Of a DNA stretch of 64,000 nt, positions 48,075-63,673 are shown piece after piece. Source of the DNA: Gemmatimonadota bacterium (lineage in GTDB: Bacteria; Gemmatimonadota; Gemmatimonadetes; Gemmatimonadales; GWC2-71-9). Numbering within the stretch: position 1 is the first letter of the stretch; every line of letters begins with the position of its first letter. The DNA lies in the NCBI GenBank assembly GCA_039588295.1, contig JBDHAB010000014.1:1-64000 (forward strand), read 5' to 3'. The notes under the pieces are model-generated. The model saw only the letters and a list, made by a program, of their open reading frames with translations. It searched no databases and had not been told where the DNA came from. Position numbers and translations under genes: made by a program.

Positions 48075-48239
48075 CTAGCTAAACTGCACGCCAACGGCGT
48101 TTTTGGGGTGCGTGACGGGATTTGAACCCGCGACCTCTGCATTCACAGTGCAGCGCTCTACCTGCCGAGCTCCACGCACCATAGGATGGTGATGGTCTTC
48201 GCCCTCAGAGAGGGGCTCGGTATGGAGTTGCGTCAACAT
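48075..48239 (-). CDS. Putative His-sensing leader peptide MLTQLHTEPLSEGEDHHHP..., reading into tRNA-His
   Basis: CAT CAC CAT codons (48186-48194) immediately upstream of tRNA-His; promoter upstream. Confidence 0.55.
   Translation of the reverse strand: MLTQLHTEPLSEGEDHHHPMVRGARQVERCTVNAEVAGSNPVTHPKNAVGVQFS
48104..48180 (-). tRNA. tRNA-His(GTG)
   Basis: G-1:C73, loop CTGTGAA, CCA. Confidence 0.9.
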
Positions 48240-48258
48240 GGTGAACCTTGAGATGGGC

Positions 48259-48286
48259 AGAATACTCGTGTGAGACGCCCTGTCAA
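48259..48286 (-). promoter_or_regulatory. Sigma70-like promoter for His/Phe tRNA unit
   Basis: TTGACA-16-TATTCT. Confidence 0.6.
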
Positions 48287-48335
48287 GAGGAGATGTTCAA
48301 AAACAGGCCCCGACCGGTACGATTACACAGAGGTC

Positions 48336-48710
48336 ATGCGGAACTTCGTCTACTGGAACATCTACGACAAGGTGTTCACCGTCCAGAACCGAGAGACCGG
48401 TCGAGTACGTCGGCACACCCCGAACATCACCCTCCGAGATGTCGATTTTGAGATCGACCAAAAGGAGCGGGAGCGGATGCTCAGAGAAAATCGGAAGACC
48501 CTCCACGCCGGGGTCCGGGGGGAGATCATCCCAACCGACCCGGAAAACCTAGAAGGCTGGACACAGGTGATCTACGACCCCGGCAGACACACCACCTTCG
48601 TCACCATCGAGGACGAGAAGCCGGTGTTCAGAGCCGAGCTCGTGCACATGTTCGTGAAGAACCAGCGAGCCCAGGTCTACGCGAAGGGCCTCACCTACGA
48701 GTTCGTGTAG
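48336..48710 (+). CDS. Hypothetical phage protein
   Basis: VYWN....FTV, LHAGVRG, YDP motifs; GAGG RBS. Confidence 0.65.
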   Translation: MRNFVYWNIYDKVFTVQNRETGRVRRHTPNITLRDVDFEIDQKERERMLRENRKTLHAGVRGEIIPTDPENLEGWTQVIYDPGRHTTFVTIEDEKPVFRAELVHMFVKNQRAQVYAKGLTYEFV

Positions 48711-49028
48711 CTCGCCTTCGGGCGACACTTCCACATCACGTCACGCAGGAGGTGGCGTCGAGTGGGCCTCGTGGTGCATGCCGGGCACGGAGAGGAACGT
48801 CCGGCGCTATGGTGTATGACGAGCTCGTCATCGCAGCGCCAACAGACGACACCCGGAGGGGATGCCATCTCCTCCGGGTGTTCGTAGTCATCCATGAAAT
48901 TGGCGGCCCGGGATCCCGTACAAGGTTGGGCGTCCCCTAGCCCCGAGCGGCCCTCGACATTCCCCGCAAGCCGTCGCCTGCGGGTTCCGTCGGGAGCATC
49001 GTGGGCCTCCCTGGCCATATTGTGTAGG

Positions 49029-49105
49029 TGGTAGCGGGAACGAGATTTGAACTCGTGACCTCCGGGTTATGAGCCCGGCGAGCTACCTGACTGCTCCATC
49101 CCGCA
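49029..49105 (-). tRNA. tRNA-Met(CAT), initiator-like
   Basis: 1-72 mismatch, GGG/CCC anticodon stem. Confidence 0.85.
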
Positions 49106-49231
49106 TCAGGTTGAGAAAATACGAGACCAGCCTGTCACGTCGCCCATCGGCGGCTGTTCTCGGGATTGTGATTTGCTACGAAAGGGGTTCCCCGGGCGCT
49201 CCTGTGAGCGCCGCGCGGGGAGGGAAAAGTT

Positions 49232-49382
49232 GATCAACGCCGAGTGAATAACCTTGAGTTGCGTTTTCACGCCAGATTTACATGTCTGGTGGCTTTACCA
49301 ATTTGCCTATCTGCCCTTAGTGGTGGGCAGAGTTGGACTCGAACCAACAATTGCTTGTGAGATTGTTCTGTTGGCGTTGATC
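49232..49382 (-). ncRNA. Y-RNA-like ncRNA A with circularly permuted tRNA domain
   Basis: Terminal stem GATCAACGCC/GGCGTTGATC enclosing T-arm, loop-closed acceptor stem, D-arm, anticodon-like arm; followed by AACTTTTC. Confidence 0.7.
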
Positions 49383-49390
49383 GAAAAGTT

Positions 49391-49522
49391 ACGAAGCGAC
49401 CGAGTTGAAGAGCTTGTTTGGTTGCAAAGCTGGAATCGAACCAGCGACCTACTGTGTCATTGACAGTTGCTCTAACCGAATGAGCTACTTGCTTGTGAGC
49501 CCTGCTGTGGTGGTTGCTTCGT
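49391..49522 (-). ncRNA. Y-RNA-like ncRNA B: tRNA body enclosed by outer stem
   Basis: ACGAAGCAACC/GGTCGCTTCGT stem, CACAAGC, cloverleaf with non-canonical loop CAATGAC. Confidence 0.7.
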
Positions 49523-49653
49523 GGCGCCGGATCCAGGAGTCGAACCTGGCAGTTGCTTGTAGACATTCACCCGTGAGCTCCCCGGAGGGAGCGAGTGGCG
49601 GTGTCGGATCTAGCCGATCTGAAAAATCGGTGACCCCCACGGGTCAATCCGGC
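49522..49653 (-). ncRNA. tRNA-like ncRNA C with about 60-nt structured variable-arm insert
   Basis: GCCGGAT/ATCCGGC-GCCA acceptor, T-arm, insert ending ACAAGC. Confidence 0.65.
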
Positions 49654-49730
49654 AAGTGGGGTGTTCGCTTGAGGGAGTTCCCTCTTCTCCCCCGAAGGGA
49701 AAGGGCAGCGAAACGGTGCCCTGAAAAAGT

Positions 49731-49866
49731 TGCGAAGTGACCGAGGGGAGAGGCTGTTTTGGTGCAAGGAGCAGGATTTGAACCCGCGACCTTCTGGTTA
49801 TCGACCAGACGCTCAACCGACTGAGCTATCTTTGCTTGTGAGCCTAACTGGAGTGGTCACTTCGTA
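49731..49866 (-). ncRNA. Y-RNA-like ncRNA D, paralog of B
   Basis: TACGAAGTGACC/GGTCACTTCGCA stem, CACAAGC, tRNA body with loop TCGATAA. Confidence 0.7.
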
Positions 49867-49867
49867 G

Positions 49868-50003
49868 TGGAGGACCCTGGATTCGAACCAAGAGTTGTTT
49901 AGCTTGTGGACATTCGCCGAGAGCTCCCGTGAAGGAGCGAGTGGTGGTGTCGGTTTCTACCGATTTACCGTCGGGTTGACCCTCCATTAGGGCCGTGTCC
50001 TCC
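49868..50003 (-). ncRNA. tRNA-like ncRNA E, paralog of C
   Basis: GGAGGAC/GTCCTCC acceptor; insert conserved with C. Confidence 0.65.
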
Positions 50004-50118
50004 ATGTTGTTCAGGGTAGTTCCGAGTACGTGGTCTGGGGGGCTTCAAGGTCCCGACCGCTACTGGGTCGGGGTTGTGCTTGTTAGACCTGCGTGTATGG
50101 AACAGCCGTGAGTTCGGG

Positions 50119-50147
50119 ATACTGCGCGCAGTCATACACGCTGTCAA
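50119..50147 (-). promoter_or_regulatory. Candidate promoter for ncRNA array
   Basis: TTGACA-N4-GTATGAC-N6-CAGTAT; similar element at 62284-62313. Confidence 0.4.
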
Positions 50148-50156
50148 GACCCTTTC

Positions 50157-50729
50157 TCAGATTTTCTCAACTCCGGCCGGCGAAATCGAGTAGCCGGTCT
50201 TGCGGCCGGCCTTGATGAACCGCTGCGCCGCGTAGGCGATGTAGGTCGCGGTGAGCTGGATGAACGGCAGGAACTCCCCGTCCTCGCAGGTCGGAGCTCC
50301 AGCGTCGCCCACGTCGTCGATGACGAAGTCCTCGTCCCAAATGGCCCGCCCAAAGCCCCCATCGGCCGCAAGAGCCCCGTGGAGGCACGGGACCCCGTGC
50401 TCCCGAGCGAACTTCTGAACGATCCTACGGGCCTCTCCGTTGTCCAGGCAGTCGATGAGTAGATCCGCCCCGCCGAGAAGCTGATTCTCGTTGTCGGCCG
50501 TCAGCTTGTTGCTCACGACCTCGATCTTACGGCCATAGCAGAACTGCATGGCCGCCTTGAGAGCCTCAGTCTTCTTCTTGCCCACCCCATTCTTGAAATG
50601 GAACTGAGAAGCGACGTTCTTCATCTCCACCCGGTCGAAGTCGATGACCTTGATGGTCACCTCCTCGTTCCGGAGGGTCTGCACCAGATGGGAACCCAGT
50701 GCGCCGACGCCGATGATCGTGATTTTCAT
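50157..50729 (-). CDS. ThiF/E1-like adenylyltransferase
   Basis: GVGALGS, DFDRVEMKN..SQ, GKKK, DCLDN; candidate catalytic Cys in APTCE. Confidence 0.9.
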   Translation of the reverse strand: MKITIIGVGALGSHLVQTLRNEEVTIKVIDFDRVEMKNVASQFHFKNGVGKKKTEALKAAMQFCYGRKIEVVSNKLTADNENQLLGGADLLIDCLDNGEARRIVQKFAREHGVPCLHGALAADGGFGRAIWDEDFVIDDVGDAGAPTCEDGEFLPFIQLTATYIAYAAQRFIKAGRKTGYSISPAGVEKI

Positions 50730-50743
50730 GATGAGGTCTCCTT

Positions 50744-51103
50744 TTACTTGTCGCCCTTTTTCTGCTTCAGGATCTCGTCGGCCACCATCCCCAGGAATTC
50801 GTCCTTGCGTTGCTCTCGACGAACCTCACCCCTCCGAAGGGTCTCTCGCAAGAAATCCACGGTGGACTCGCGAGCCTGACTGACCGCCTGTTGGAGACGA
50901 TCCGTATTCTTGATGGCATCCAGGACCGAAGTGGACGGCCCCTTGGCAGTGAACGTGAACTTGTCCCCGTCCTTCACCAAACGGGAACTCCCTCCCGCGG
51001 ATTGGTGGAGCTTCCGCAGAGCTCGGAACCCCTCCATCGTTTTCGACCACATCGACTCCGGAATTTGGAGGGTGACGGTGTGTTCGATTATGTCGTTGCT
51101 CAT
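50744..51103 (-). CDS. Hypothetical protein in Ub-like operon
   Basis: 119 aa ORF between Ubl and E1. Confidence 0.6.
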   Translation of the reverse strand: MSNDIIEHTVTLQIPESMWSKTMEGFRALRKLHQSAGGSSRLVKDGDKFTFTAKGPSTSVLDAIKNTDRLQQAVSQARESTVDFLRETLRRGEVRREQRKDEFLGMVADEILKQKKGDK

Positions 51104-51139
51104 CGGGATCTTGAACCGGGTTTGTTACCTCTATTCCCG

Positions 51140-51403
51140 TTAGCCCCCGAACGGAGTCTTCGGACGAACCTGAATCAGGTTGTAGTCCCGATCGGCGTTC
51201 GCCGAAAAACGGTCCACCACGAAATCGGCGAAATCCGGATCCGCGTCGGCCGGAATGCCCGGGATCGACCCATTGGAAACGGCCTCCGAAACCCAGGTCT
51301 TGATGTCGCCATCGACGGCATCGAAGAACACAGGATCCGGGAGATCCCCGTTCTCTCCCTTGTAGGTGATGTTGAGACGTGCTTGCGTGTTATCCATGTC
51401 CAT
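51140..51403 (-). CDS. Ubiquitin-like (beta-grasp) protein
   Basis: 87 aa, ends RPKTPFGG-stop; lies between JAB and E1. Confidence 0.75.
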   Translation of the reverse strand: MDMDNTQARLNITYKGENGDLPDPVFFDAVDGDIKTWVSEAVSNGSIPGIPADADPDFADFVVDRFSANADRDYNLIQVRPKTPFGG

Positions 51404-51788
51404 GACGATTCTCCTTTGAGTAGTCGCGGAGCTGTGCAGCCCAGTCGGGCTCGTCCGCGAGAAAATGGTTGTAGTCGTGCTTCTTGGGTCCTTCGTAGTT
51501 CAAGCCGATCACACGATCGGAACTCGTGATCCACCAGGTCAGGCGTCGCCCGAGCCCGAGCTCTACGGCGGCGAAGGTGGTGATGTCGGTCCAGGAAGGG
51601 CCGGGCAGACCCGACCCCGGGTGACTGTGTGCGAACCCCAGGAATGCTTCCCTTCGGTGCTCCCACAGAACGTCCCACAGATCCCGACTGTCGGGGAGAC
51701 TGCCTCCCGTTCGGCCGTTTGGCAAATGCCAATGGACGACTCCTGCACCCGTAATGACTGCGCCTGCTTCGATCATCGCTTCCTCCAA
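51390..51788 (-). CDS. JAB/MPN (Mov34) metallopeptidase
   Basis: N-terminal E, then HSHP......PS..D JAMM motif. Confidence 0.85.
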   Translation of the reverse strand: MEEAMIEAGAVITGAGVVHWHLPNGRTGGSLPDSRDLWDVLWEHRREAFLGFAHSHPGSGLPGPSWTDITTFAAVELGLGRRLTWWITSSDRVIGLNYEGPKKHDYNHFLADEPDWAAQLRDYSKENRHGHG

Positions 51789-51855
51789 GGAACATGCGTG
51801 AACGCCAAAATGAGCACGCAGATCAGCATGAACACGAGCACTACGGGTGAAAAAT

Positions 51856-52449
51856 TCATCGTTTCCTCTTCTTGATAACTCGTGGAATCTCGTCGAGAGT
51901 CGCCAGAACTTCCTCGTTCTGACGTTTCTGCCATCCCTGGAGCCTTACCGAGGTCTTCAGGTAGTAGGGATGCTTGAGCCAGTCAGCGTACTGAATGTTG
52001 CCTCGCACCTTGTTGCACTTGCGGCAAGCCGACACGAGGTTGGCTTCGGTGGACGGCCCTCCGTCCTCCCAGAGCACGAGGTGGTCCACGGTGAGCGGGA
52101 CCTCCTTGTTGTTGCAGTAACGGCAGGCGTACCCATCACGCCGATAGACGTTCCAGGAGACACCCTGCTCGATGTTGCGTTGGCACTTGCGGGCGACGGA
52201 CTTGTACAGCTTCCCGTCCTCGGCCTTCTCCAGCACTTCGGTCTCGACGAGGTCGGACTGACGGATGAGTTTTTGCCATTCCTCGGTCGTCGGGGTGAGG
52301 ACACGGATGTCCCCTTCATGCTCTCCGAATTCGGGGAACACGACGACGAGGGTCTGATCGTTGCCAGCCCACACCCCACCCACCAGGAGAATCTCCTGGC
52401 CAACGGTCTTGATATCGAGGTCTTTGAATTCCATCAGACATGCCTCCAT
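51856..52449 (-). CDS. HNH endonuclease with N-terminal extension
   Basis: RDGYACRYC..LTVDH..GG..NLVSACRKCN. Confidence 0.9.
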   Translation of the reverse strand: MEACLMEFKDLDIKTVGQEILLVGGVWAGNDQTLVVVFPEFGEHEGDIRVLTPTTEEWQKLIRQSDLVETEVLEKAEDGKLYKSVARKCQRNIEQGVSWNVYRRDGYACRYCNNKEVPLTVDHLVLWEDGGPSTEANLVSACRKCNKVRGNIQYADWLKHPYYLKTSVRLQGWQKRQNEEVLATLDEIPRVIKKRKR

Positions 52450-53366
52450 ACGACGAGCTTGTGCTCGCGGATCGCTTGGCGAATAACTGCGGGCAGAGAT
52501 TCCAGAGTGAAGTAGGTGTCGCCCTTCTCATCGGTGCCGTGATCTGTAAGACAAACACCGGCATCGATGATTTGGAGGTTCGTGTCGCACACGCACTCCA
52601 GGCGCTGCCCATCGACGCGGTACTTCACGGTCCACTCATTCTTGCGACCACTCTTACGGTGGTCCAGATACTGCGCACCGCCGACCGTGAGAGCCGCCTT
52701 GGCAGCCTCCTGGAAATCCTCCTTGGCCAGTTCACGCCGACCAGCACCATCCCCGAGCTTCTCCAGGAGCTCCGCACGACGAGCCACCTTGGCGAGACGG
52801 GCCTCCTCCTCGGCACGACGACGGATGAGCTCCTGACGACGAAGCTCTGCCTGCTGACGCTGGTAGACCTCCATGCGGAAGGCTGCATCGAGCGCGGGCA
52901 CCACACTGCGGATACCGAACGTGCTGATCTGGTTGTCGAGAAAAGCGTTCATGACTTCCTCTTCGGGACCGAGGGGAAAATCCTGCTCACAGAAAATGAG
53001 AGGCCCCTCGGGGTAAATGCGGCCAGCTCGCACACGCGAGAACCGGTCGAGGTCTTCGGGAAGGAGATAGACCTTCTCCGAGTAGTTGATGATCTTGCCC
53101 GGGTCGGGGTCGATCCGGGTGTCGTCGGGGACCAGACGGTCCCCGACCAGGTAGCCCTTGACCGAGCTCTTGAGAAGTTCAGGAGCCGGGTCAGCGGGCT
53201 TCGGGTCCTCGGCCTTGTTGCCTTCGATCTGGAAGGCGTACCAACCAAAATCCCGAGGCCGAGTCCCGAGCTTGAAAGTTCGGGACTCGGAGTGGAGAGA
53301 CCCACCACCCGTCCAAGGAAGAGTAGTGGTCTCCCCCTCGGCCGTGAGTAGATCTCTCCAACCCAT
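52434..53366 (-). CDS. Hypothetical protein, candidate E2-like
   Basis: C-terminal IIDAGVCL resembles the E2 GxICL active site; operon context. Confidence 0.55.
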   Translation of the reverse strand: MGWRDLLTAEGETTTLPWTGGGSLHSESRTFKLGTRPRDFGWYAFQIEGNKAEDPKPADPAPELLKSSVKGYLVGDRLVPDDTRIDPDPGKIINYSEKVYLLPEDLDRFSRVRAGRIYPEGPLIFCEQDFPLGPEEEVMNAFLDNQISTFGIRSVVPALDAAFRMEVYQRQQAELRRQELIRRRAEEEARLAKVARRAELLEKLGDGAGRRELAKEDFQEAAKAALTVGGAQYLDHRKSGRKNEWTVKYRVDGQRLECVCDTNLQIIDAGVCLTDHGTDEKGDTYFTLESLPAVIRQAIREHKLVVWRHV

Positions 53367-53375
53367 GGGGTCACC

Positions 53376-55268
53376 TCATGCCCATGCGGGCTTCTGGAGA
53401 AGCTCCGTTTGAAGGATTTGGTCCACGAGCGTCACACGAGGGCGCGCGCGACCAGCCACCGCTTCCCCAACCGGGGTTGCAGCGATCAGAGCCCGAATCG
53501 TCCGAGTGATCGCGTAGGGATCCTCGAAGGTACGGTCATCGAGCATGAGGCACGGGATACCGAGCCGGTTGGCCGTCTCTCGCACCGCGGTGCTGTTGTC
53601 CGCGCCATAGTGACGCGCACGCCAACCCGCGGCTCCCCCGAACGCAACCGTCTTGAGGAACCCGAAAGCGACCGGGCGCAGGCCCGAAGCCTCGACGGCC
53701 GTGTGGAAGGGACGTGCCTCCTCATCACCAATGAAGATGATCAGAGAGTCCTCGTCATCCGCGGGCTTGTACTTCTGGAGCACACGGATCCCGGCACCGT
53801 AGTCAGTACCACCGCCAGCGCCGATGCCACGGAAAGCCGCCTCCACACCCTTCGTCGAAGCGTGCTTGATGGTGACCTCCCGACCGTTCGTGTTGAACAC
53901 GGCGACCTTCACCTGGTCGAGCGGGAACGACTGGAGGAACTTGGCGATCAGAGGCTTTGCAGCATCCAGAGCACCCTGCATCGACCCCGAGATATCCACG
54001 AGGAACTTGATCGACAAGCCACGGATGGTCTCCTCGACCACCTTCTGAGCCACCTTGTCGGCACCCTCCTCCATCGTCTCCTGGAGCTCCTTGGACCGAA
54101 CGTTGCGGGCGATGTTAGCCGCACGCATGTCGTCCGCCTTGGCGAGAGCCGCAGCGTGGCGCTCCTTGATTTCCTGGATCTTGAACAGGCCCAGGTCCTC
54201 CAGGGTCGGAGTCATGATGATGATGTCCTTGTCCGAAAGGGACCCGGCCTCGATGGCCGCAACCATCACTGCACGAGTGACTCCCACCTTCGGAGGAAGG
54301 AGACCCACGATCCGCTTCCAGTTCGGCTTGGTCTTCTCGATGAGCTGGCAGATAGCCGCCTCGTTGAGATCGTCCCACGACTCGGCAGCCTTGACCGCCT
54401 TACCGATCGCCATGCCACGCCGGCCGTCGTCGGCCTGCTTCTGCTTCCAGCGCAGAGCCTCGAAGAACTTGTCCGAGGTCGGCTTGTAGCCGATACGCCG
54501 AGCCATGGTCATGACCGTGGTACGGAACCCGGCCTTGACGAGACCCTCCAGCATCTTGGGGTTCTCCTCACGGAACCGAAGCCACTTCTCGATGGCCTTG
54601 GGCCATCGACCGAGGAACGGACGCTTGGCCGACTTGCCGAAGCCGAGCTCGCGGTTGATCTCCGCGATCTCGGGCAGCATGAGCACGTCGTAGATCCGAA
54701 GCAGGAGCTTCGGGTTCAGATCCTTGCCCTTCTCCTGGAGAAGAAGCATGGCCTCACCGACGTTCCGGTAGTCGTCATCGTCGAACAGGTGCTCACCGCC
54801 GTCCATGACGGGGTCCCCCTTCCGAGACTGAACCAGAAGGAACGCAGCGAGCACGACCTTGAGGTCACGGTGCTCCTGACGGAAGGCGAACGAAGCCCAC
54901 TTCGCAGCGAACTCGTTGTCCATCTTCCAGACCTCAGCGACCTGCTTGTAGAACCACACCGCGACCTCGGGGAACAGACCGCTCTTGCGGTACAGCCCCA
55001 CCTCGTTACGGCCGTTCCGAACGGTGTTGTCGCCGTTCATCGTGCCGATCTCGGTACGAACGTTCTTCTTCCCCGCCTTGCTGAGACGGAACACCTTCTT
55101 GACGCCGTCCGCCTCCTTGTGCGTGACGGGATCCCACCGCACGCCAATAGTGGCACGCGCGTCGGGAACCACAACGCCAGGGCGGTTGTGAACCATGTGA
55201 TCTGAGTACGCCAGGAGAGACTGGATGATGGTCTCAGCGGGCCCGAGGTTTTCCTTGTTGTTCTCCAT
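53376..55268 (-). CDS. VWA-domain protein, divergent TROVE/Ro60-like
   Basis: Helical N-region with FAAKWASFA..RDLKVVLAA; C-terminal MIDAS DISGSM, GGTD, GDEE. Confidence 0.7.
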   Translation of the reverse strand: MENNKENLGPAETIIQSLLAYSDHMVHNRPGVVVPDARATIGVRWDPVTHKEADGVKKVFRLSKAGKKNVRTEIGTMNGDNTVRNGRNEVGLYRKSGLFPEVAVWFYKQVAEVWKMDNEFAAKWASFAFRQEHRDLKVVLAAFLLVQSRKGDPVMDGGEHLFDDDDYRNVGEAMLLLQEKGKDLNPKLLLRIYDVLMLPEIAEINRELGFGKSAKRPFLGRWPKAIEKWLRFREENPKMLEGLVKAGFRTTVMTMARRIGYKPTSDKFFEALRWKQKQADDGRRGMAIGKAVKAAESWDDLNEAAICQLIEKTKPNWKRIVGLLPPKVGVTRAVMVAAIEAGSLSDKDIIIMTPTLEDLGLFKIQEIKERHAAALAKADDMRAANIARNVRSKELQETMEEGADKVAQKVVEETIRGLSIKFLVDISGSMQGALDAAKPLIAKFLQSFPLDQVKVAVFNTNGREVTIKHASTKGVEAAFRGIGAGGGTDYGAGIRVLQKYKPADDEDSLIIFIGDEEARPFHTAVEASGLRPVAFGFLKTVAFGGAAGWRARHYGADNSTAVRETANRLGIPCLMLDDRTFEDPYAITRTIRALIAATPVGEAVAGRARPRVTLVDQILQTELLQKPAWA

Positions 55269-55988: not shown

Positions 55989-56031
55989 AGTAGATAATCG
56001 GTCCAATGTCACTCTCGTCTTCGTTTTCCAT
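55966..56031 (-). CDS. Putative Ile-sensing leader peptide MENEDESDIGPIIYSVCSSVG
   Basis: AAGGAG RBS; ATT..ATT ATC just before tRNA-Ile. Confidence 0.6.
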   Translation of the reverse strand: MENEDESDIGPIIYSVCSSVG

Positions 56032-56062
56032 CTCGGTCTGCTCCTTTCTTGGTTGATGTTCT

Positions 56063-56945: not shown

Positions 56946-57021
56946 CGGGGCGTACGGGATTTGAACCCGTGACCTCCTACGTGACAGGCAGGCGTCCTAA
57001 GCCAGACTAGACCAACACCCC
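56946..57021 (-). tRNA. tRNA-Asp(GTC), no encoded CCA
   Basis: Loop CTGTCAC. Confidence 0.9.
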
Positions 57022-57152
57022 ATGTTGGCGGAGCAGACGAGAATCGAACTCGCAACCTTCGGACAGACAATCCGTTGCGCTACCAATTGCGCCACTGCTC
57101 CGTACATATCGTCGGTATCGTCCGCATCATCGCTTTCGCTGTTGGTGTTCAT
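56997..57152 (-). CDS. Putative Asp-sensing leader peptide MNTNSESDDADDTDDMY..., reading through tRNA-Asp
   Basis: AAGGAG RBS; 6 Asp in 8 codons just before tRNA-Asp. Confidence 0.65.
   Translation of the reverse strand: MNTNSESDDADDTDDMYGAVAQLVAQRIVCPKVASSILVCSANMGCWSSLA
57026..57101 (-). tRNA. tRNA-Asp(GTC), divergent
   Basis: Loop TTGTCTG, GCCA. Confidence 0.8.
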
Positions 57153-57394
57153 CGTGCTGCTCCTTTCTTGGGGTGAGTGGGTGTCTGGAAAGTTCGGCTG
57201 TTTGATCCCACAGGCCGTCCGGTCGCCTGCTGTATCGCCCCTCGGTGCGGTGCGCTGTCGTGCACCTCGCTTCATCGAGGCGCGTTAGGATGGGATGGAA
57301 AAGTTGAGGCTTTTGTGTCTACCGGTCAGCCTCGGTGGCCGGCCATCACGGATCCTTGATCAGGGGACAACCTGGGACAGGATTGGAAAAGTTA

Positions 57395-57546: not shown

Positions 57547-57587
57547 GGAGCCCACGGAGGGATTCGAACCCTCGACCTCAGACGTAC
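57547..57587 (-). pseudogene. 3' half of a tRNA-Thr-like gene
   Basis: AGGTC GAGGG TTCGAAT CCCTC CGTGGGC TCC without 5' half. Confidence 0.6.
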
Positions 57588-57589
57588 GG

Positions 57590-57664
57590 AGCCCGCGAGA
57601 GGATTCGAACCTCCGACTCCCTCATTACGAATGAGGTGCTCTAGCCGGACTGAGCTACACGGGC
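57590..57664 (-). tRNA. tRNA-Thr(CGT)
   Basis: Loop TTCGTAA. Confidence 0.9.
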
Positions 57665-57701
57665 GATTGATGTTGGTGTTCTCCTGTTGAAGTGAAGTGC
57701 T

Positions 57702-57775
57702 TGGAGCTGGCGGTGAGAATCGAACTCACGTCTTCGGGTTACAAATCCGGAGCTCTGCCATTGAGCTACGCCAGC
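57702..57775 (-). tRNA. tRNA-Thr(TGT)
   Basis: Loop TTTGTAA, TCCA. Confidence 0.9.
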
Positions 57776-57874
57776 GATAAGGCCGGCGTGGCCAGTCCGT
57801 GTCGAGCAACCCTTCCGGGCTCCCCGGCGGGTTTCTTCACTCAGTTGGAGTTCGGTAAATCCGCCGGGAAATGC

Positions 57875-57970
57875 TCAACACGGGGTCATATCGCCCATAA
57901 TGGGCAATACGACGGCCACGACGACCAGATTGGTCGTTGTCGTGGCTGTGTATGTCGTGGAGCGTTTCAT
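57875..57970 (-). CDS. Attenuator-type leader peptide MKRSTTYTATTTTNLVVVAVVLPIMGDMTPC
   Basis: 8 Thr and 5 Val codons, thrL-like start; between promoter and tRNA operon. Confidence 0.75.
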   Translation of the reverse strand: MKRSTTYTATTTTNLVVVAVVLPIMGDMTPC

Positions 57971-58018
57971 GGCGAAAAATCCGAAGCCGCTTTCCTGCCA
58001 AGGGAGGCGACCTGTCCA

Positions 58019-58047
58019 GGTGTACGCGCGCTTCGACGGGCTGTCAA
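58019..58047 (-). promoter_or_regulatory. Sigma70-like promoter of tRNA operon
   Basis: TTGACA-17-TACACC. Confidence 0.65.
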
Positions 58048-58071
58048 GCACCCTTGTTCACTTTTTTTGAA

Positions 58072-58851
58072 TCACCATCGCCACACGAACTCGTCGAGCC
58101 ACTGCTTGCGGCTCTCGTCGTCGAGCGCGAGGAAAGCCTGCTCCTCCGCCATCATCTCCACGTTGAAAGCGTCGGCAATCTTGCGGTGTGCGGTGCCGGG
58201 GTCGAACGCCCAAGGCTGCCAGGGGTAGTGGGCCCCCAGGCGATACTGGTTCTCCACCTCGATGATGCAGTCGATCCACGGCTTCATAGACGCCCACGTC
58301 ATCGTCTCACGGTCCATCTCGCGCTTGGCGAACTCCTGCCGGTGCAGGAGCTTGAGCGGGAGCGGGCTGTGCCCGAGGTTGTCGTTGATGGAACGCCCCG
58401 CGATGACGATGTTCGACTGGCCGTTACCGAGGCCGTTGTTGCGCTCGCATACGAGATGCTCCCGAGAGCACTCCCACGGAACGTAGTAGTGAAGAGCAAT
58501 CCGGAGGTCCGTAGGGACGAGGTACATCTGGACGCCCGTGTACCAACATCGCTGGGGGAGGCCCGCATCGAGGCCGAACCGCTTAGCCATCTTCACCGAG
58601 ACCCAGTCCCGGTTTTTATTGCGCTTTGCGATCTCGTCGTAGTGCATCCACACGAGCTCGGGGTCGTGCTGATCGCCCCCGGTCATCACCAGGAGCTCCC
58701 GGTCAGCGTACTTCTTGTAGCGAAGGAGGCGTCCGGTCTCGGGGTCAACACGGTTTAACGCGGCAACGCGCATCCGCTCTTGAAATTCGGGATCGTGTTT
58801 CCCTTTCCACTCGCGGAGCTTATCCCGGTTCTTTCGACCGTGACGGCCCAT
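58072..58851 (-). CDS. Hypothetical protein, degenerate HNH-like
   Basis: CWYTG..SREHLV..NIVIA..IN. Confidence 0.55.
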   Translation of the reverse strand: MGRHGRKNRDKLREWKGKHDPEFQERMRVAALNRVDPETGRLLRYKKYADRELLVMTGGDQHDPELVWMHYDEIAKRNKNRDWVSVKMAKRFGLDAGLPQRCWYTGVQMYLVPTDLRIALHYYVPWECSREHLVCERNNGLGNGQSNIVIAGRSINDNLGHSPLPLKLLHRQEFAKREMDRETMTWASMKPWIDCIIEVENQYRLGAHYPWQPWAFDPGTAHRKIADAFNVEMMAEEQAFLALDDESRKQWLDEFVWRW

Positions 58852-60128
58852 CAGTGTCGGGGAACATTCCCGGGGTCGACAGCGATCTTCGCCACGATCC
58901 TCTTGCACTCGGAACACGAAACCGTGAGGGCTCCGTTCTCGTAGGAGCACCAGGTGGGGGCACCGATGTGGCACTGGGGATGCAGGAACATCTCGGTGCT
59001 GTGGCTCTTGTGGTCACACCCCTCCACGGCGCACGTCATACCGTCGAGCGTCACCTGGGTCAGCGGCGGGAGGTTTTTGCGGCGCCCATTCTCCGCCTCG
59101 ACCACTTCCTCGTCGTCCCCCTCGTGGTCATGGCTCCCATGCTTGTGGGACAGTATCGGCCCCAACGCCGGATAGAATTTCATGGCGTCGTTGGGCATCT
59201 GCGGAAACCCAGAGACCTGACCGTCACCGATCTCCATGATGATCCACTCGCCGTCTGCCGTCTGTGCGAGGTCCATGGAGAAGAACTGGCTGTCCACCTT
59301 CGCCGCCAGCGCGCCGAGAGTTTCGAACGAAGGGAGATCCTCGATGGATTTCGGGGCCGAAAAACTGCGAGGCATACTCTCCTCCCAACCACCGTCGGGC
59401 TCCGGGACCTCGTGGGTGACACGCTCGTAGGCGTCCTCGTCCCAGTACTCGCTGATGTTGATGCTGTGTCCGTTGAGCCAGAAGATTCGGAACTCCTCCG
59501 ACATCGGCATCCCCGACTGAGGATGCTTGCCGATGGATTTGAGCGGCACGAACTGACGCAGGATCACACCCCCCTGGAGATCGTCACCCTGGCGCTCCAG
59601 GAAATTCGAGATCACGGTCTGGGCCTTCTCCATGTTGGGGATGAAGCACGCCTCCTCCCACTCGTGTTTCCTACTTTTCACGTAGTCCTTGATGAGGATG
59701 CCGTGCTCGTAACGACCGAGCATCTCCTGGGCAGTACGGAGGATCCTCTCGACACTGATCTCATGCTTCTGGATGATTGCGGAGTCGGGCGTCGAATCGA
59801 CGAGATCGAGGTACCAACCGGGGAACTCGTGAGCCTTCCGATACTGGTGGGGGGTGTTGATGAGGTCCACCAGGCAAACCTGGAGCTTCTCGTAGAGCTT
59901 CTCGTACTGATCGGACGTGAGCATCCACCCCCGGTAGATAGCCGGTGTGGGCTCCTCGAAATCAGGGACGTACTTCACGGCCGCTGCCGCATCGTCGTCG
60001 TTGACCAGGGACTCCCAGTGCACGAAAGCGACCTGATAGCCACACTGCTTGGCGATGTCGGCTTCGGTGGCCCAATCTGGGTCGGGTTTTTTGGGCTCGA
60101 AGGGATCGGATGGGAACAGGACGAGCAT
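58851..60128 (-). CDS. ATP-grasp domain protein (R2K-like clade) with C-terminal Cys/His cluster
   Basis: YRGWML, KDYVKS.KHEW, EFRIF, MDLA, EIGDGQVSG. Confidence 0.8.
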   Translation of the reverse strand: MLVLFPSDPFEPKKPDPDWATEADIAKQCGYQVAFVHWESLVNDDDAAAAVKYVPDFEEPTPAIYRGWMLTSDQYEKLYEKLQVCLVDLINTPHQYRKAHEFPGWYLDLVDSTPDSAIIQKHEISVERILRTAQEMLGRYEHGILIKDYVKSRKHEWEEACFIPNMEKAQTVISNFLERQGDDLQGGVILRQFVPLKSIGKHPQSGMPMSEEFRIFWLNGHSINISEYWDEDAYERVTHEVPEPDGGWEESMPRSFSAPKSIEDLPSFETLGALAAKVDSQFFSMDLAQTADGEWIIMEIGDGQVSGFPQMPNDAMKFYPALGPILSHKHGSHDHEGDDEEVVEAENGRRKNLPPLTQVTLDGMTCAVEGCDHKSHSTEMFLHPQCHIGAPTWCSYENGALTVSCSECKRIVAKIAVDPGNVPRH

Positions 60129-60163
60129 TACCTCGATTTTACCCCTATCGGGCCCCGTATCTG

Positions 60164-61180
60164 ATGGCACACGTCCATAAAGCACTCATTGTCCTGCTGT
60201 TTGCGCCTGCGTGCGACAAACAGGCTGACGACTCCGCAGCCAAGACTGATCCCGCTGCGAAGCTGGATGTCGGCGCAAAGCTCGATGTCGGGACCCCTGG
60301 GACGCACACGGTCAACTTCGTCAACCAGTGCTCCAGTGACATCTGGGTTGGATCAGTCGGCAATACCGGGTTCAGCGGTCTCAACAACGGCGGTTGGCAG
60401 ATGGGAGCCAAGGGCTCCGGCACCGACAAGACCACCCTCCAAGTTGAAGTGGGATGGAGCGGTCGTTTCTGGCCACGTACCGGGTGCACGTTCAACGATA
60501 AGGACCTCTGCGACGGGTTCACGCCCTGCTGCACGAGTGGCTCTTGTCTGACTGCGGACAACAAAACCTTCGGCCTGGAGTGCGCATATTCTGGGAAAGC
60601 CCCGGTGGGGATCGGCGAGTTCACGTTCGACGCCGCTGGAGGTCTCGGCCCCTATGACACCTACGATGTGAGCTTCGTTGATGGATGGGGGGAGTCCCTC
60701 TCTGTCGTGGCTGTGGCCGGCACCTTCAACCCGAAACCAGACCCAGGGTTGAAAGCTCCTTGGTGCACGGTGTCAGGATGCACTTCGGCGCCGACGTGTC
60801 CGAAGGGGCTCAGTGCCGGTGGCGATAGCTGCTGGAGCCCCTGTCAGAACGCGGTCAACAGCGGGGACCCCGATAGCACGCAGGCGAAACTCTGCTGCTC
60901 GTGCTCAATGACGAGTCCCATCACCTGCGGAGAGGCCACATGCGCTGGCGGCTACGGCTGCTCTCCCTACACGCAACCTCCGTGGCCGGCGGACCAGGTG
61001 TGCAATCCCTGGAACACGGACAAGAGCCGAGCGTGGGACACCACGAGCCAGGACTACATCGCCAACGTCCACAAAACGTGCCCCGGGGTCTACGCCTGGC
61101 AGTTCGATGATGTCAACGGAACGTACAACTGCCGCAAGACCAACGGCCTCGTGGACTACACCGTCACCTTCTGCCCGTAG
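60164..61180 (+). CDS. Thaumatin-family (PR-5-like) lipoprotein
   Basis: Lipobox-like APAC; VNQC..IWVG, WSGRFWPRTGC, YDVSFVDG, CP..YAWQFDD, YTVTFCP. Confidence 0.9.
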   Translation: MAHVHKALIVLLFAPACDKQADDSAAKTDPAAKLDVGAKLDVGTPGTHTVNFVNQCSSDIWVGSVGNTGFSGLNNGGWQMGAKGSGTDKTTLQVEVGWSGRFWPRTGCTFNDKDLCDGFTPCCTSGSCLTADNKTFGLECAYSGKAPVGIGEFTFDAAGGLGPYDTYDVSFVDGWGESLSVVAVAGTFNPKPDPGLKAPWCTVSGCTSAPTCPKGLSAGGDSCWSPCQNAVNSGDPDSTQAKLCCSCSMTSPITCGEATCAGGYGCSPYTQPPWPADQVCNPWNTDKSRAWDTTSQDYIANVHKTCPGVYAWQFDDVNGTYNCRKTNGLVDYTVTFCP

Positions 61181-61196
61181 CGGGTAGAGTGACGGC

Positions 61197-61886
61197 ATGC
61201 ACATCGTCGAACCTGGCTGGACCGTCCGCGCGTTCAGGCTCGACGGTACCTCTGTAGTAGGCACCGTCGAGTCAGGCCCTTACCGGGCCCAAGACGGGAA
61301 GATCGTGGACAAGACTGTCCGTCTGCACGACGGCTCCGAGCACCGTTCACATCTGTGCGAGCCCGCAGGAGAGACCTTGCGGACGTGGCCCGACAGCCAT
61401 CCAACGAAGGTGCACTTCGACCCCATCGCGTACGGGGCCATCGACAAAATACTCGGAGGACACTGGAGCAGCCACCTCACCGAGTACGTCGACATCGACT
61501 GGGAGCGGCGTACGATGAAGACCAATCAGCTCTCCACGTTTGTCGGGTCCACCAGGGTCTACGACAAAGACGGCTGCCTGGTGAAGGACGATGGTGATGT
61601 TCGGATGCCTGCAGAGGAGGTACTGGAAAAGCTGGCTCCGATTGCGTGGGCTTTCCAGGACGACGAGGTGGAGCGTCTCAAAGGCCCCATCACGGATGCC
61701 TTCCAAAACCTGCAAGCGCAAGGGATTGCCGTAGCCCACATCCATCTACCCCGATGGGCCAAAGGGATCTGGCCCGGGGAACGGGTCTTCGGAGTGCCCT
61801 TCTGCAAAGCGCCGTTCCCCATGGTCCTGTCACAGAAACACTACGGCCGCTTCGCAGCGATCATCGGCATCTTCGGGGCGCCCTAG
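61197..61886 (+). CDS. Hypothetical protein
   Basis: 229 aa ORF. Confidence 0.55.
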   Translation: MHIVEPGWTVRAFRLDGTSVVGTVESGPYRAQDGKIVDKTVRLHDGSEHRSHLCEPAGETLRTWPDSHPTKVHFDPIAYGAIDKILGGHWSSHLTEYVDIDWERRTMKTNQLSTFVGSTRVYDKDGCLVKDDGDVRMPAEEVLEKLAPIAWAFQDDEVERLKGPITDAFQNLQAQGIAVAHIHLPRWAKGIWPGERVFGVPFCKAPFPMVLSQKHYGRFAAIIGIFGAP

Positions 61887-62269
61887 AACAGACGGAGCTG
61901 GGCTCCCTCTTTGGTGAGCTTGTGGCTCGGGTCGTGGGCCTGGAGGGCAACCTCGACATCGTCCACCTGGGGCCAGTCAGACATTCCCTGATGGTTCTTG
62001 ATCGAGTGCGCGGCCATCCACTCGGCGGCGGTATCGAACACCTCCTCGGCCACGACCTCGTAGTAGCCCTCCTGACCGACGATCTCGCACATCAACTTGA
62101 GATCCTCTGCGAGATCTCCGTCCCGCATCCAGAGCTCGCCGTTGAGCTTCATGATGTCGTTCATCCACGCGGCAACGCGGTCAGCCTTGGCTTTATCGGT
62201 GAAGACCCCTGCGGTCCAATAGCCGTCTCCGGTCTGCTCTCCGTGGAAATTGATACTGTAGATCTCCAT
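61883..62269 (-). CDS. Hypothetical protein
   Basis: 128 aa ORF. Confidence 0.55.
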   Translation of the reverse strand: MEIYSINFHGEQTGDGYWTAGVFTDKAKADRVAAWMNDIMKLNGELWMRDGDLAEDLKLMCEIVGQEGYYEVVAEEVFDTAAEWMAAHSIKNHQGMSDWPQVDDVEVALQAHDPSHKLTKEGAQLRLF

Positions 62270-62320
62270 ATCGCTTCTACCCCTTGACAGGGGTATGACA
62301 GAGGGGTCAGTATTTTCACG

Positions 62321-62572
62321 ATGGCCGACGTGCTCAACACCGGGCTCCTAGAGCTCGACGAAATCCTCTCCGGGGAGGGGACCTTGCGCCGTGGTGAGCT
62401 GTCGGTCTTCGTGGCAATGCCACCGACCTCCAAGACGATCTTCTGGCGACAACAGCTCGAACGCGCGATGGAGGACGGCAAGACTGCCGTCTACATCGAC
62501 TACGAGATGAAACCGACGGACAGCCTTTCGGACCTGGGGGCCACACCCCCGGACAAGCCGATCAAGGTCTAG
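62321..62572 (+). CDS. Short DnaB/RecA-like fragment
   Basis: TGLLELDEIL..LRRGEL..AMPPTSKT..VYIDYEM; degenerate Walker A. Confidence 0.55.
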   Translation: MADVLNTGLLELDEILSGEGTLRRGELSVFVAMPPTSKTIFWRQQLERAMEDGKTAVYIDYEMKPTDSLSDLGATPPDKPIKV

Positions 62573-62623
62573 CCCAGTCCGGAGCATAGAGCTGACAGGA
62601 CTGGGCGGGCCGGAAAGGCCGTC

Positions 62624-62887
62624 ATGTCCAAGAGAGCTCTACGTCGTCATCACCGTGAGCGCATGCTTCAGCACTGCGCTCGCATCCTCAAGATCCGTTG
62701 GGACGAGTCACTCGCCACCGGGGACATCACCTTCGATGACATCGAGCGGTGGTCTCGGCTTCGTCGGGACAACTTCTCGTTCTGTTCCTGCTGGATGTGC
62801 TGCAACCCGCGGCGCCTTCGGAACTCGAACGGTCCTTCACGCACCGTGCAGGAACTCCGGGCGATGCAGGAGGTGGATGATGAGTAG
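62624..62887 (+). CDS. Basic Cys-motif protein (paralog 1)
   Basis: RALRRHH..CSCWMCCNPRR..RTVQE. Confidence 0.65.
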   Translation: MSKRALRRHHRERMLQHCARILKIRWDESLATGDITFDDIERWSRLRRDNFSFCSCWMCCNPRRLRNSNGPSRTVQELRAMQEVDDE

Positions 62888-63146
62888 GGCACTACGCCGA
62901 CACCACCGGCAACGGATGGTGAACAGGGCTCGTGCGCTCTTCCGACGGTGGGGGGACACCGAGGAGAGGATCCGACACACGGCGCCTCGACTCGCGGACA
63001 ACCTCTGCTGGTGCTCGTGCTACTCGTGCGGCAACCCGCGACGCCACTTTGGGTTCTGCATCTACGGCAAGACCAACAGTGTCCGAACCCGACAAGAGGT
63101 TTTCGCTGACCTCCAACTCCAAGAACAACTCGAAGAAATTGAATGA
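62880..63146 (+). CDS. Basic Cys-motif protein (paralog 2)
   Basis: RALRRHH..CSCYSCGNPRR..RTRQE. Confidence 0.65.
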   Translation: MSRALRRHHRQRMVNRARALFRRWGDTEERIRHTAPRLADNLCWCSCYSCGNPRRHFGFCIYGKTNSVRTRQEVFADLQLQEQLEEIE

Positions 63147-63151
63147 CTCGC

Positions 63152-63180
63152 TTGACACGAACGTCGAGCACGACTACAAC
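63152..63180 (+). promoter_or_regulatory. Sigma70-like promoter of Lys tRNA unit
   Basis: TTGACA-17-TACAAC. Confidence 0.65.
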
Positions 63181-63189
63181 GGCAAGACC

Positions 63190-63222
63190 ATGTTCTGCAT
63201 GAAACGCAAGACCAAGCTGTAG
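63190..63222 (+). CDS. Putative Lys-sensing leader peptide MFCMKRKTKL
   Basis: AAA, AAG, AAG codons right after the promoter, upstream of Lys tRNAs. Confidence 0.55.
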   Translation: MFCMKRKTKL

Positions 63223-63274
63223 CCCGAGGGGACGGACGCAATCCGCCTCTTGGGCGTCGATAGCGTTTATCCCC

Positions 63275-63352
63275 GGGCCGGTAGCTCAGTCTGCGCAGAG
63301 CGGTGGGTTCTTACCCCATAGGTCGAAGGTTCGATTCCTTCTCGGCTCACCA
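63275..63352 (+). tRNA. tRNA-Lys(CTT), divergent
   Basis: Loop TTCTTAC, ACCA. Confidence 0.8.
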
Positions 63353-63442
63353 ACGGGACCACGAACGGTACGAAAGACCGGCCGTGACCCGGGTGCCAGG
63401 ACACGCCCACTGATCGTGGGACCGTCACCCTGACACCACCCT

Positions 63443-63519
63443 GGGCCCATAGCTCAACCCGGCAGAGCGGCTGACTCTTAATCAGTAGGTTGTAGGTTCG
63501 ATTCCTACTGGGCTCACCA
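63443..63519 (+). tRNA. tRNA-Lys(CTT)
   Basis: Loop CTCTTAA, ACCA. Confidence 0.9.
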
Positions 63520-63580
63520 AGAAAGATCATCATGTTTCCAGCACACGACACTCTCAAACGCACCCTCGCTCCATCCCTTT

Positions 63581-63673
63581 GGGCGAGTTAAGCGTAGCCT
63601 GGCCGAACGCACCGGACTTTTAATCCGGAGGACGAAAGTCCCACCGGGGGTTCGAATCCCTCCTCGCTCTCCA
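63581..63673 (+). tRNA. tRNA with TTT anticodon and long variable arm
   Basis: Loop CTTTTAA, GGAC-GAAA-GTCC arm, TCCA. Confidence 0.75.

Follow-up and report, generated by a model that had tools for sequence, protein, structure and literature searches.

Short cognate-codon reading frames ahead of phage tRNA genes as candidate sensors of tRNA decoding capacity

The stretch analyzed here, hereafter the window, comprises the first 64,000 bases of the 72,311-base contig JBDHAB010000014.1 and carries arrays of transfer RNA (tRNA) genes, five groups of which are preceded by a short open reading frame (ORF) with codons for the amino acid of the tRNA that follows. The contig belongs to a 4.5 Mb assembly of 160 contigs filed under Gemmatimonadota, and it is a piece of a very large phage binned with a bacterium. 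This assignment follows from its lower G+C content (0.604, versus 0.625–0.66 in the 29 other contigs of the assembly that were listed), its tRNA load (19 of the 68 tRNAs that ARAGORN calls in the assembly), its phage-like genes (GH25 lysozyme, Phage_L5_gp82, HNH, ThiF, and JAB domains, an R2K ATP-grasp, and a vWA protein), and the presence of relatives of the vWA protein on large viral contigs. That protein, 630 residues long, is encoded just downstream of the main tRNA array; contigs bearing its relatives reach 618,736 bases. ARAGORN reports 19 tRNAs in the window, and Rfam scores two more above its gathering threshold. Genes for the same amino acid are neighbors (Thr-Thr, Asp-Asp, Val-Val, Ile-Ile, Met-Met, and four Lys), and the arrays form 2.4 kb of untranslated RNA followed by protein genes on the same strand.

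A sequence-only reading of the window had described five tiny ORFs upstream of matching tRNAs, and all five are present where it had placed them (Table 1). The cognate amino acid accounts for 8 of 31 codons in the Thr leader, 6 of 17 in the Asp ORF, 3 of 14 in the Ile ORF, 4 of 20 in the His ORF (three of them in a row), and 3 of 10 in the Lys ORF. For comparison, we retrieved 80 related loci through the vWA protein, which yielded 617 nonredundant tRNAs with upstream DNA. Nine contigs share the array Thr-Thr-(Thr)-Asp-Asp-Val-Val-Ile-Ile-Met-Met, and a second clade is more distant (vWA identity 55–62%). Below, W denotes the window and L-numbers denote related viral or metagenome loci. Retention of the control codons among relatives, whose absence the sequence-only reading had named as a refutation, was seen for each leader in the proportions given below.

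Table 1. Leader features and adjacent tRNA genes in the window (nt, nucleotides; SD, Shine-Dalgarno sequence)
Feature	Position	Strand	Details
tRNA-His(GUG)	48104-48179	-	ARAGORN, Rfam
His leader, peptide MLTQLHTEPLSEGEDHHHPM	48180..48286	-	promoter TTGACA-16 nt-TATTCT 48286-48259; ATG 48239
Two tRNA-Ile(GAU)	55913-55988, 55833-55910	-	ARAGORN, Rfam
Ile mini-ORF, peptide MENEDESDIGPIIY	55989..56047	-	SD AAAGGAG 56047-56041; ATG 56031
Two distinct tRNA-Asp(GUC)	57026-57101, 56945-57021	-	ARAGORN, Rfam
Asp mini-ORF, peptide MNTNSESDDADDTDDMY	57102..57166	-	SD AAAGGAG 57166-57160; ATG 57152
tRNA-Thr(UGU), tRNA-Thr(CGU)	57702-57775, 57588-57664	-	ARAGORN; Rfam 65.4, 64.3 bits
Region 3, GGCCACGCCGGCC	57781..57793	-	5′ part complements Val run (CGTGGCC)
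Structured 3′ domain of Thr leader	57797..57883	-	11-base-pair helix P4 (CCGTGTTGAGC, holding the stop codon, with GCTCGACACGG); RNAalifold
Val run GGTCGTCGTGGC, region 2	57926-57914	-	3′ strand of hairpin P2
Thr run GCCACGACAACGACC, region 1	57946-57932	-	5′ strand of hairpin P2
Thr leader ORF, 31 codons, peptide MKRSTTYTATTTTNLVVVAVVLPIMGDMTPC then stop	57875..57970	-	no SD
Hairpin P1, GTCGC/GCGGC	57986..58011	-	invariant loop CCCTTGGCAGG; stem 80.6% paired, one-sided changes
Promoter-like site of the Thr-Asp-Val-Ile-Met tRNA operon	58019..58047	-	TTGACA 58047-58042, 17 nt, TACACC 58024-58019
Lys leader, peptide MFCMKRKTKL then stop	63152..63255	+	TTGACA 63152-63157, 17 nt, TACAAC 63175-63180; ATG 63190
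Four tRNA-Lys	63275-63751	+	CUU 63275-63352, 63443-63519; UUU 63581-63673 (93 nt), 63675-63751

The Asp, Ile, and His ORFs abut or run into their tRNAs. The Asp ORF, which reads through the first tRNA-Asp to a stop at 56997, precedes that gene in 9 of 9 array-sharing contigs and in the distant locus L071 (peptide MDAPDDCDDR). Its Shine-Dalgarno sequence (SD) and ATG are kept in W, L010, L014, L017, L044, L048, L054, L058, and L071; L011 also keeps the ORF, its SD position lying off the locus. The string GAAAGGAG plus ATG is retained in seven of the eight Asp ORFs with visible upstream sequence. The peptides vary in length and order (MNDNDSDDADDSDDTY, MDSDDSDDRDLY, MADDDDDDRL, MPDDDDDDDDRL, MDDDDDVHDPN), always with 5–8 Asp in 9–17 codons, and the distance from ATG to tRNA takes values of 51, 48, 45, 39, 36, and 33 nucleotides (nt) with the last Asp codon invariably two codons before the tRNA. 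The Ile ORF ends inside its tRNA (stop 55966–55968) and is kept in 7 of 7 close-clade arrays, with 2–4 Ile in 12–14 codons. It is absent from L054, where an insertion precedes the tRNA; in L048 the relocated tRNA-Ile keeps an Ile ORF, MDDDISDIIRH, beside it. For both ORFs, length differences among relatives are multiples of three. Both also have AAAGGAG upstream of the ATG, at a distance of six to eight bases, and no class of ribosome-binding site in the window is stronger: a strict AAGGAG-N-ATG occurs six times on its coding strands, four times at the start of real genes and twice at the Asp and Ile ORFs.

A compositional feature accompanies the Asp SD. The 42 nt before it are C-rich and G-poor with CAACC-like repeats (window 57105–57170 and 56050–56075 on the minus strand, and L010, L044, L048, and L058); where the spacer is free (W, L010, L044, L048, L058), they hold 17–21 C and 2–6 G. 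By composition, the tract resembles a Rho loading site or a structure-free spacer, and because C-rich, G-poor tracts precede the ribosome-binding sites, Rho-dependent control is possible.

The His ORF lies behind a promoter that scores 10 of 12 in a promoter scan, has a weak AAGG 8 nt before its ATG, and reads through tRNA-His to a stop at 48075. The HHH run (48194–48186) that had been noted before tRNA-His stands in frame in five of six relatives; in the remaining one, L058, the frame is lost and the hairpin kept. At the nucleotide level, the His codons CACCAT complement ATGGTG, which spans G-1 and the start of tRNA-His, a complementarity kept without sequence change in 6 of 6 relatives, and an inner hairpin of the leader covaries.

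The Lys ORF (63190–63222, plus strand) lies 52 nt before the first tRNA-Lys and appears near-leaderless, as its ATG is only 9 nt downstream of the -10 hexamer. A hairpin begins at the stop codon (63222–63255) and shows two-sided changes among relatives, GAG/CTC versus GTG/CAC. Relatives retain the KRKT(K) core, the promoter, and a spacing of 8–10 nt (6 of 6). In the second clade, K-rich ORFs with an SD abut tRNA-Lys(UUU), for example MKRKNKPGKAGPKR and MKQKSMPVKDGPKQY; they occur at 8 of the 18 Lys(UUU) genes examined, always before a UUU tRNA, and contain hairpins with two-sided changes. The window Lys leader and these ORFs have the nucleotide string ATGAAACGYAAGAMCAAGC in common. Scanning IMG/VR for it returned 27 stretches: 5 adjoin a tRNA, each 44–48 bases before Lys(UUU), with 4 of the 5 on new contigs of 114–513 kb, and the other 22 are the starts of longer, unrelated proteins.

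The Thr leader is a structured RNA of about 240 bases. Across the 57 leader pairs defined by RNAalifold and pair counts, 90.2% of 437 pair cells are paired, versus 35–48% with slid partners. A promoter-like TTGAC(A/T)-17 nt-TA.... keeps its position in 8 of 8 relatives; it is absent from the list of the consensus promoter scan because position 6 of its second hexamer is not T. Within the 17-nt spacer (58025–58041, minus strand), a short inverted repeat has arms that change together among relatives (RNAalifold columns 39–54) and may be an operator for a DNA-binding protein. The TTGGC of the P1 loop can pair with GCCA at the start codon according to RNAalifold; all eight sequences are identical there, so this pairing shows no covariation. 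No stop interrupts the Thr ORF between its shared ATG and its shared TGA in 8 of 8 relatives, which have 7–10 Thr in 30–31 codons. Because it lacks an SD and its peptide varies freely at several positions, we treat it as a putative coding ORF only.

Hairpin P2 joins the Thr run to the Val run and includes three pairs with two-sided compensatory changes. In the most diverged relative, L048, the whole of P2 is replaced by other paired bases: the Val run is lost, and the hairpin and seven Thr codons are kept. Structure therefore explains the Val codons. Ile, Met, and Asp contribute one or two codons each within hairpin P3 and are not enriched. The proposal that this ORF senses Val, Ile, Met, and Asp in addition to Thr is rejected. 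Farther downstream, P4 encloses P5 and a small GGAA-loop hairpin (helix 5, 92% paired; helix 6, 85.7%). The 3′ part of region 3, CGCCGGC, complements the first seven nucleotides of tRNA-Thr (GCTGGCG, 57775–57769). This helix is 100% paired in the seven of eight sequences that align there, and four of its seven pairs vary one-sidedly; in L048, by eye, a 5-base-pair equivalent, CTAGC/GCTAG, follows the changed tRNA. The helix between regions 2 and 3 is 98% paired and nearly invariant, and for that reason uninformative. The Thr leader's case as a possible sensor is this pairing wiring of regions 1, 2, and 3 with the tRNA 5′ strand.

Searches placed the Thr leader in a narrow group of phages. With Rfam at E ≤ 1, positions 44000–64000 gave tRNA matches and tRNA-derived noise, with no leader family and no T-box; at E ≤ 10, the Thr leader gave no T-box and one meaningless match on the opposite strand (E = 7.8). 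By nhmmer over all loci and the whole assembly, it occurs in the close clade only. A 16-nt pattern scan of IMG/VR returned 83 stretches, of which 6 were real Thr leaders, all on contigs already in the set; a scan for loci with a 300-residue protein upstream of the leader found none, and searching GenBank phages at the DNA level with the tRNA region matched tRNA genes only. Contigs from four DNA runs include low-depth relatives that cover the leader, with a few substitutions at positions that are variable among the loci too, and nothing decisive.

We then considered whether ORFs and tRNAs are associated beyond the individual leaders. For the window alone, label permutation over its 19 tRNAs gave P = 0.02 with raw counts and P = 0.06 with standardized counts; 7 of the 19 follow another tRNA at a distance of no more than 10 nt, and no cognate enrichment was seen at the Phe, Val, Met, third Ile (49835), or later Lys tRNAs. 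Permuting labels over all 617 tRNAs gave P < 2e-4. A scan blind to ribosome-binding sites, which accepted upstream ATG ORFs of 5–40 codons in which one amino acid contributes three or more residues and no less than 25%, found 36 cognate-rich ORFs in 454 nonredundant regions versus 11.7 ± 3.2 (maximum 23) in 5,000 label permutations. The enrichment over shuffled labels that had been proposed as a check is thus present, at a figure inflated by kinship among loci; counted independently, there are about five ORF families, each matched to its own tRNA. By amino acid, rich ORFs stood before their own tRNA in 10 of 12 cases for Asp, 10/12 for Lys, 2/2 for His, 2/3 for Ile, and 6/16 for Thr. Few were cognate for Ser (1/34), Arg (3/28), or Leu (2/20), and none for Ala (0/8), Glu (0/6), Gly (0/13), Pro (0/7), or Val (0/11). 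The other, bacterial contigs of the assembly gave 2 cognate-rich cases in 43, both Arg or Leu.

The abutting ORFs mostly spell their cognate amino acid with the synonym that long genes of the phage avoid. GAT and GAC occur 40 and 18 times in the short ORFs (36% GAT in long genes), AAA and AAG 18 and 6 times (12% AAA), ATT and ATC 14 and 5 times (13% ATT), and CAT and CAC 6 times each (33% CAT). This choice fits a sensor built from slow codons.

Folding predictions connect some leaders to the tRNA itself. For Ile, the leader is predicted to pair with the tRNA 5′ acceptor strand at a probability of 0.97 or more in five of seven sequences, versus 0.16–0.44 with shuffled leaders; for His, the values are 0.56–0.84 versus 0.32–0.63. 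In thermodynamic folding of free Thr transcripts, the leader holds the tRNA 5′ strand in six of eight. When a ribosome footprint was modeled as a 30-base mask on the Thr codons, the predicted acceptor-stem probability rose to at least 0.5 in five of eight Thr leaders (W, L010, L014, and L044 with a codon-11 mask; L054 with a codon-6 mask only). With masks on the Val run or the stop codon, the six leaders that are closed when free stay closed. A terminator-like hairpin, defined as a stem plus a T-run, was found on the leader strand in none of the five leaders.

We regard it as about an even call that these ORFs are cis-acting sensors of single-tRNA decoding capacity, acting on the phage's own tRNA genes. 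Reading by ribosomes, with cognate codons that matter, is the best account of the link between ORF and cognate tRNA, of its persistence while the sequences turn over, of the ribosome-binding sites, of indels that keep the frame, and of an ORF that travels with its tRNA. With parts of the leader able to pair with the acceptor strand at the tRNA 5′ end, the regulated step would be how the neighboring tRNA folds and is processed at that end. The anatomy points the same way, and classical termination is an improbable output. The analogy to thrL- and hisL-type leaders drawn from the sequence alone is thus upheld in part: cognate codons, ribosome-binding sites (Asp, Ile), and frame-keeping lengths fit sensing, and a defining part of those systems, the terminator, is missing. 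The sequences themselves show the ORFs, their ribosome-binding sites, the conserved cognate-codon bias, and the conserved pairings; that the ORFs are translated, that ribosomes stall on them, and that tRNA folding and processing, not transcription, respond in the direction proposed is inferred from these features.

In the proposed mechanism, a ribosome would start on the short ORF, at a strong SD for Asp and Ile, a weak AAGG for His, at or next to the transcript 5′ end for Lys, and without an SD for Thr. With cognate charged tRNA plentiful, it would run into the tRNA (Asp, Ile, His) or to the leader stop (Thr, Lys), after which the precursor would be kept unfolded, or the leader would refold and pair with the tRNA 5′ acceptor strand. 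With cognate tRNA scarce—through rare A/U-ending codons, starvation, or nuclease loss of the host tRNA—it would stall on the upstream cognate codons and cover or redirect the competing leader segment; the tRNA would then fold, RNase P would cut, and the tRNA would be released. At the Thr operon this would take the form of a four-segment relay made of the Thr run (1), the Val run (2), GGCCACGCCGGCC (3), and the tRNA 5′ strand (4), the acceptor stem acting as stand-in for the terminator of a classical attenuator. Such a "tRNA-folding attenuator," in which the stall of a starved ribosome would free the acceptor strand and make the supply of each phage tRNA demand-driven, is offered tentatively, and the balance leans against this specific form.

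Among the alternatives, the one that survives best treats the leaders as RNA-only elements: structured 5′ parts of tRNA precursors that serve processing, folding, stability, or antitermination, with the codons a by-product and the ORFs unread. It accounts for the Thr leader, which is conserved at the nucleotide level, 90.2% paired, marked by compensatory P2 changes, devoid of an SD, and built so that the Thr and Val runs are complementary strands. It likewise accommodates CACCAT as the complement of the 5′ ATGGTG of tRNA-His, L058 with its hairpin but no in-frame HHH, and the hairpins with two-sided changes within the His leader and K-rich ORFs. Unexplained by it are the Asp ORFs, where sequence turns over freely and no consistent tRNA pairing exists, yet SD, ATG, frame, and 5–8 Asp persist in 10 contigs; unexplained too are indels in threes and the placement of Asp-, Lys-, His-, and Ile-rich frames each before its own tRNA. 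Structure is in any case compatible with translation, since classical attenuators combine structure and coding. We rate RNA-only function as unlikely, while granting it some weight.

Strong, conserved ribosome-binding sites would equally suit ORFs that are translated without sensing anything, their ribosomes blocking Rho or nucleases or opening the 5′ leader for RNase P, with the cognate bias otherwise caused. Protection would be apt for 2.4 kb of untranslated RNA ahead of same-strand protein genes, and the C-rich, G-poor 42 nt before the SD look like Rho loading sites; each ORF, however, covers 30–50 nt of spacers that reach 490 nt, and most tRNAs of the arrays have no ORF. As the cognate link and the preference for rarer codons would also go unexplained, translation without sensing seems improbable to us. 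Classical transcription attenuation, in which a leader peptide picks a terminator or an antiterminator hairpin ahead of the tRNAs, is a poorer prospect still. Its natural places would be the Thr and Lys leaders, where stop codons are followed by conserved hairpins and, at Thr, regions 1, 2, and 3 share complementarity; but none of the five leaders has a stem plus T-run on its strand (only intrinsic terminators were looked for), and the Asp, Ile, and His ORFs abut the tRNA with no room for a terminator. Chance, (GAY)n/(AAR)n triplet repeats near tRNAs, or acidic or basic peptides with a function of their own are very improbable, for although the window alone reaches just P = 0.02–0.06 and slippage can lengthen or shorten GAY repeats by whole triplets, the match between ORF and tRNA holds for four amino acids across contigs whose vWA proteins are 55–87% identical, and the 2 hits in 43 on the bacterial contigs include none for Asp, Lys, His, Ile, or Thr.

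Several observations also weigh directly against the sensor reading. The Thr leader has no SD, its start codon may pair with the P1 loop, and it is conserved largely at the nucleotide level; by a rough estimate, its ORF would stay open by chance with a probability of about 0.3, which makes for weak coding evidence, and its Thr and Val content is partly forced by structure, the runs being two strands of one hairpin. In L058, indels of +2 and -2 put HHH out of frame while the nucleotide hairpin is kept. Leader pairing to the tRNA 5′ strand is not general: its predicted probability is 0.01–0.70 for Asp and is high in only two of seven Lys(UUU) cases, so the candidate rule that all families pair in this way is unsupported for those two. 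The masking effect fails in three of eight Thr leaders (L017, L048, L058), a codon-11 mask lowers the acceptor-stem probability in L054, and thermodynamic predictions are unreliable for unmodified tRNA. Just 6–9 nt separate the last cognate codons from the tRNA, and a ribosome stalled on them would hide the RNase P site; the sign of control may for this reason be the opposite of the one proposed. Such an ORF is missing before many other tRNAs in these arrays (Val, Met, Phe, the second of each pair). Outside the close clade, overall enrichment is weak (P = 0.04–0.09) and rests on Lys, and the rare codons could reflect missing codon adaptation in short ORFs. Virus Rctr197k (L165, GenBank KX853510), the sole GenBank relative by vWA protein, has a tightly packed tRNA array without cognate-rich ORFs; before its Lys(UUU) gene stands MTYKRSGHA and a stop, with one Lys.

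The sensor reading has clear points of contact with established systems. Leader-peptide attenuators control amino-acid operons, as with Escherichia coli thrL, hisL, ilvL, pheL, and trpL. The phage leaders resemble them in having a short ORF with a cognate run, alternative leader pairings, and a promoter-proximal position, and the Thr leader starts ATGAAACGC (MKR), as does thrL. They differ in that the targets are tRNAs rather than biosynthetic enzymes, no intrinsic terminator is present, none of the leader families in Rfam matches, three of the five ORFs enter the RNA that would be regulated, and the last pairing partner is apparently the tRNA 5′ acceptor strand. In pheM-pheST, a leader peptide senses charged tRNA and controls the messenger RNA (mRNA) of phenylalanyl-tRNA synthetase through a terminator. 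There too a leader peptide is set over a decoding component of the same amino acid, but here the tRNA gene itself, not a synthetase mRNA, would be controlled, and without a terminator. Translational attenuation at erm and cat genes uses a drug-dependent stall in a leader ORF, with translation of a protein gene as output; here likewise, a stall inside a short leader ORF would remodel downstream RNA structure. T-box riboswitches are likewise cis leaders that report on a single tRNA species and act on genes for its amino acid, but they bind uncharged tRNA directly and have no ORF, and the Rfam scans of positions 44000–64000 and of the Thr leader gave no T-box match. A tested parallel comes from mycobacteria, where leaderless short ORFs with poly-Cys runs stall ribosomes, which thereby prevent mRNA structures from hiding a site farther downstream (bioRxiv 10.1101/834739). 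That Cys "ribulon" shares with the phage leaders a (near-)leaderless ORF, a single-codon run, freedom from terminators, and several loci on one signal; its hidden site is the ribosome-binding site of a cysteine-metabolism protein gene, whereas here it would be the tRNA 5′ acceptor strand and the signal would be the availability of the tRNA itself. Unlike both the ribulon and erm/cat, the downstream element here is a tRNA and not the ribosome-binding site of a protein gene.

What appears new, judged from the sequence, is leader-peptide sensing aimed at tRNA genes, apparently terminator-free. The claim that no precedent had been described agrees with a full-text literature search, which, with subscription journals outside its coverage, turned up nothing on tRNA genes controlled by leader peptides or cognate-codon ORFs. 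Genes for tRNAs are usually seen as being under growth-rate and stringent control rather than feedback from their own decoding, and Asp, His, and Lys(UUU) tRNAs are typical targets of host anticodon nucleases. If the sensor reading is right, a phage would gain an autonomous, per-anticodon answer to rare-codon load or to such nucleases, and phages with large tRNA sets would adjust each tRNA species through decoding, the process in which it takes part. Leader-peptide control, familiar from amino-acid and synthetase genes, would then also cover tRNA itself, with folding and processing in place of termination as output. It would bear on why phages carry tRNAs (codon supply versus replacement of tRNAs lost to host defense), and the choice of sensor codons would mark the decoding steps that limit the phage in its host. 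The ORF-plus-tRNA cassettes are small, at about 130 nt.

Further features of the tRNA arrays were recorded. Neighbors with the same anticodon differ considerably in sequence (55833–57101, 63275–63751, 47647–48018), and the pairs are kept in relatives: Asp GUC, Ile GAU, Met CAU, Lys CUU, Lys UUU, and Phe GAA, each twice, the second Phe GAA tRNA being called by Rfam only. In the first tRNA-Asp, the anticodon loop is unusual: it reads TTGTCTG and places U at position 37. One copy may be a variant that escapes host nucleases. The tRNA-Lys(UUU) at 63581–63673 is 93 nt long, with a long extra arm that is unusual for Lys; its counterparts in L014 measure 93 and 87 nt, and a weak YrlA-like Rfam match overlaps it at 63622–63726 (31 bits, below threshold). 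The notion that the 630-residue vWA protein is of the Ro60 type, with Y-RNA-like partners, was dropped after a profile search of PDB sequences returned generic vWA domains only. Halves of tRNAs and tRNA-like genes with long insertions lie at 49265–50010 and 57102–57587, an element of about 60 nt occurs in two copies (around 49900–49960 and 49550–49610), and the motif CACAAGCAA stands upstream of several tRNAs. A "tRNA-His(atg)" at 49420–49494 has the loop CAATGAC. Of the third tRNA-Thr(GGU) found in relatives, only the 3′ half is left in the window, at about 57540–57585. In Rctr197k, CTTGGCAGGA occurs at 6596–6730, downstream of a TTGAC promoter-like site and ahead of the tRNA array; it is the same string as the invariant loop of hairpin P1, which may be coincidence.

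Between the Asp and Val tRNAs, which are adjacent in relatives, a gene for a 228-residue helix-turn-helix protein (56196–56882, minus strand) is present in this phage only; its stop overlaps tRNA-Val, and it looks like a mobile insertion into the array. Elsewhere on the contig, two ORFs of 2,579 and 2,626 codons (6875–14614 and 15281–23161, minus strand) have no Pfam match. Also on the minus strand are genes for an M50 peptidase (31682–32419), a Bax1-I family membrane protein (37281–38027, E = 1e-47), and a ThiF-like E1 protein (50157–51788), the last close to a JAB-domain gene with two small ORFs between them. A thaumatin-family protein with a signal-like N terminus is encoded on the plus strand at 60110–61180 (Pfam E = 1e-27), on a phage contig, in a family that is mostly eukaryotic.

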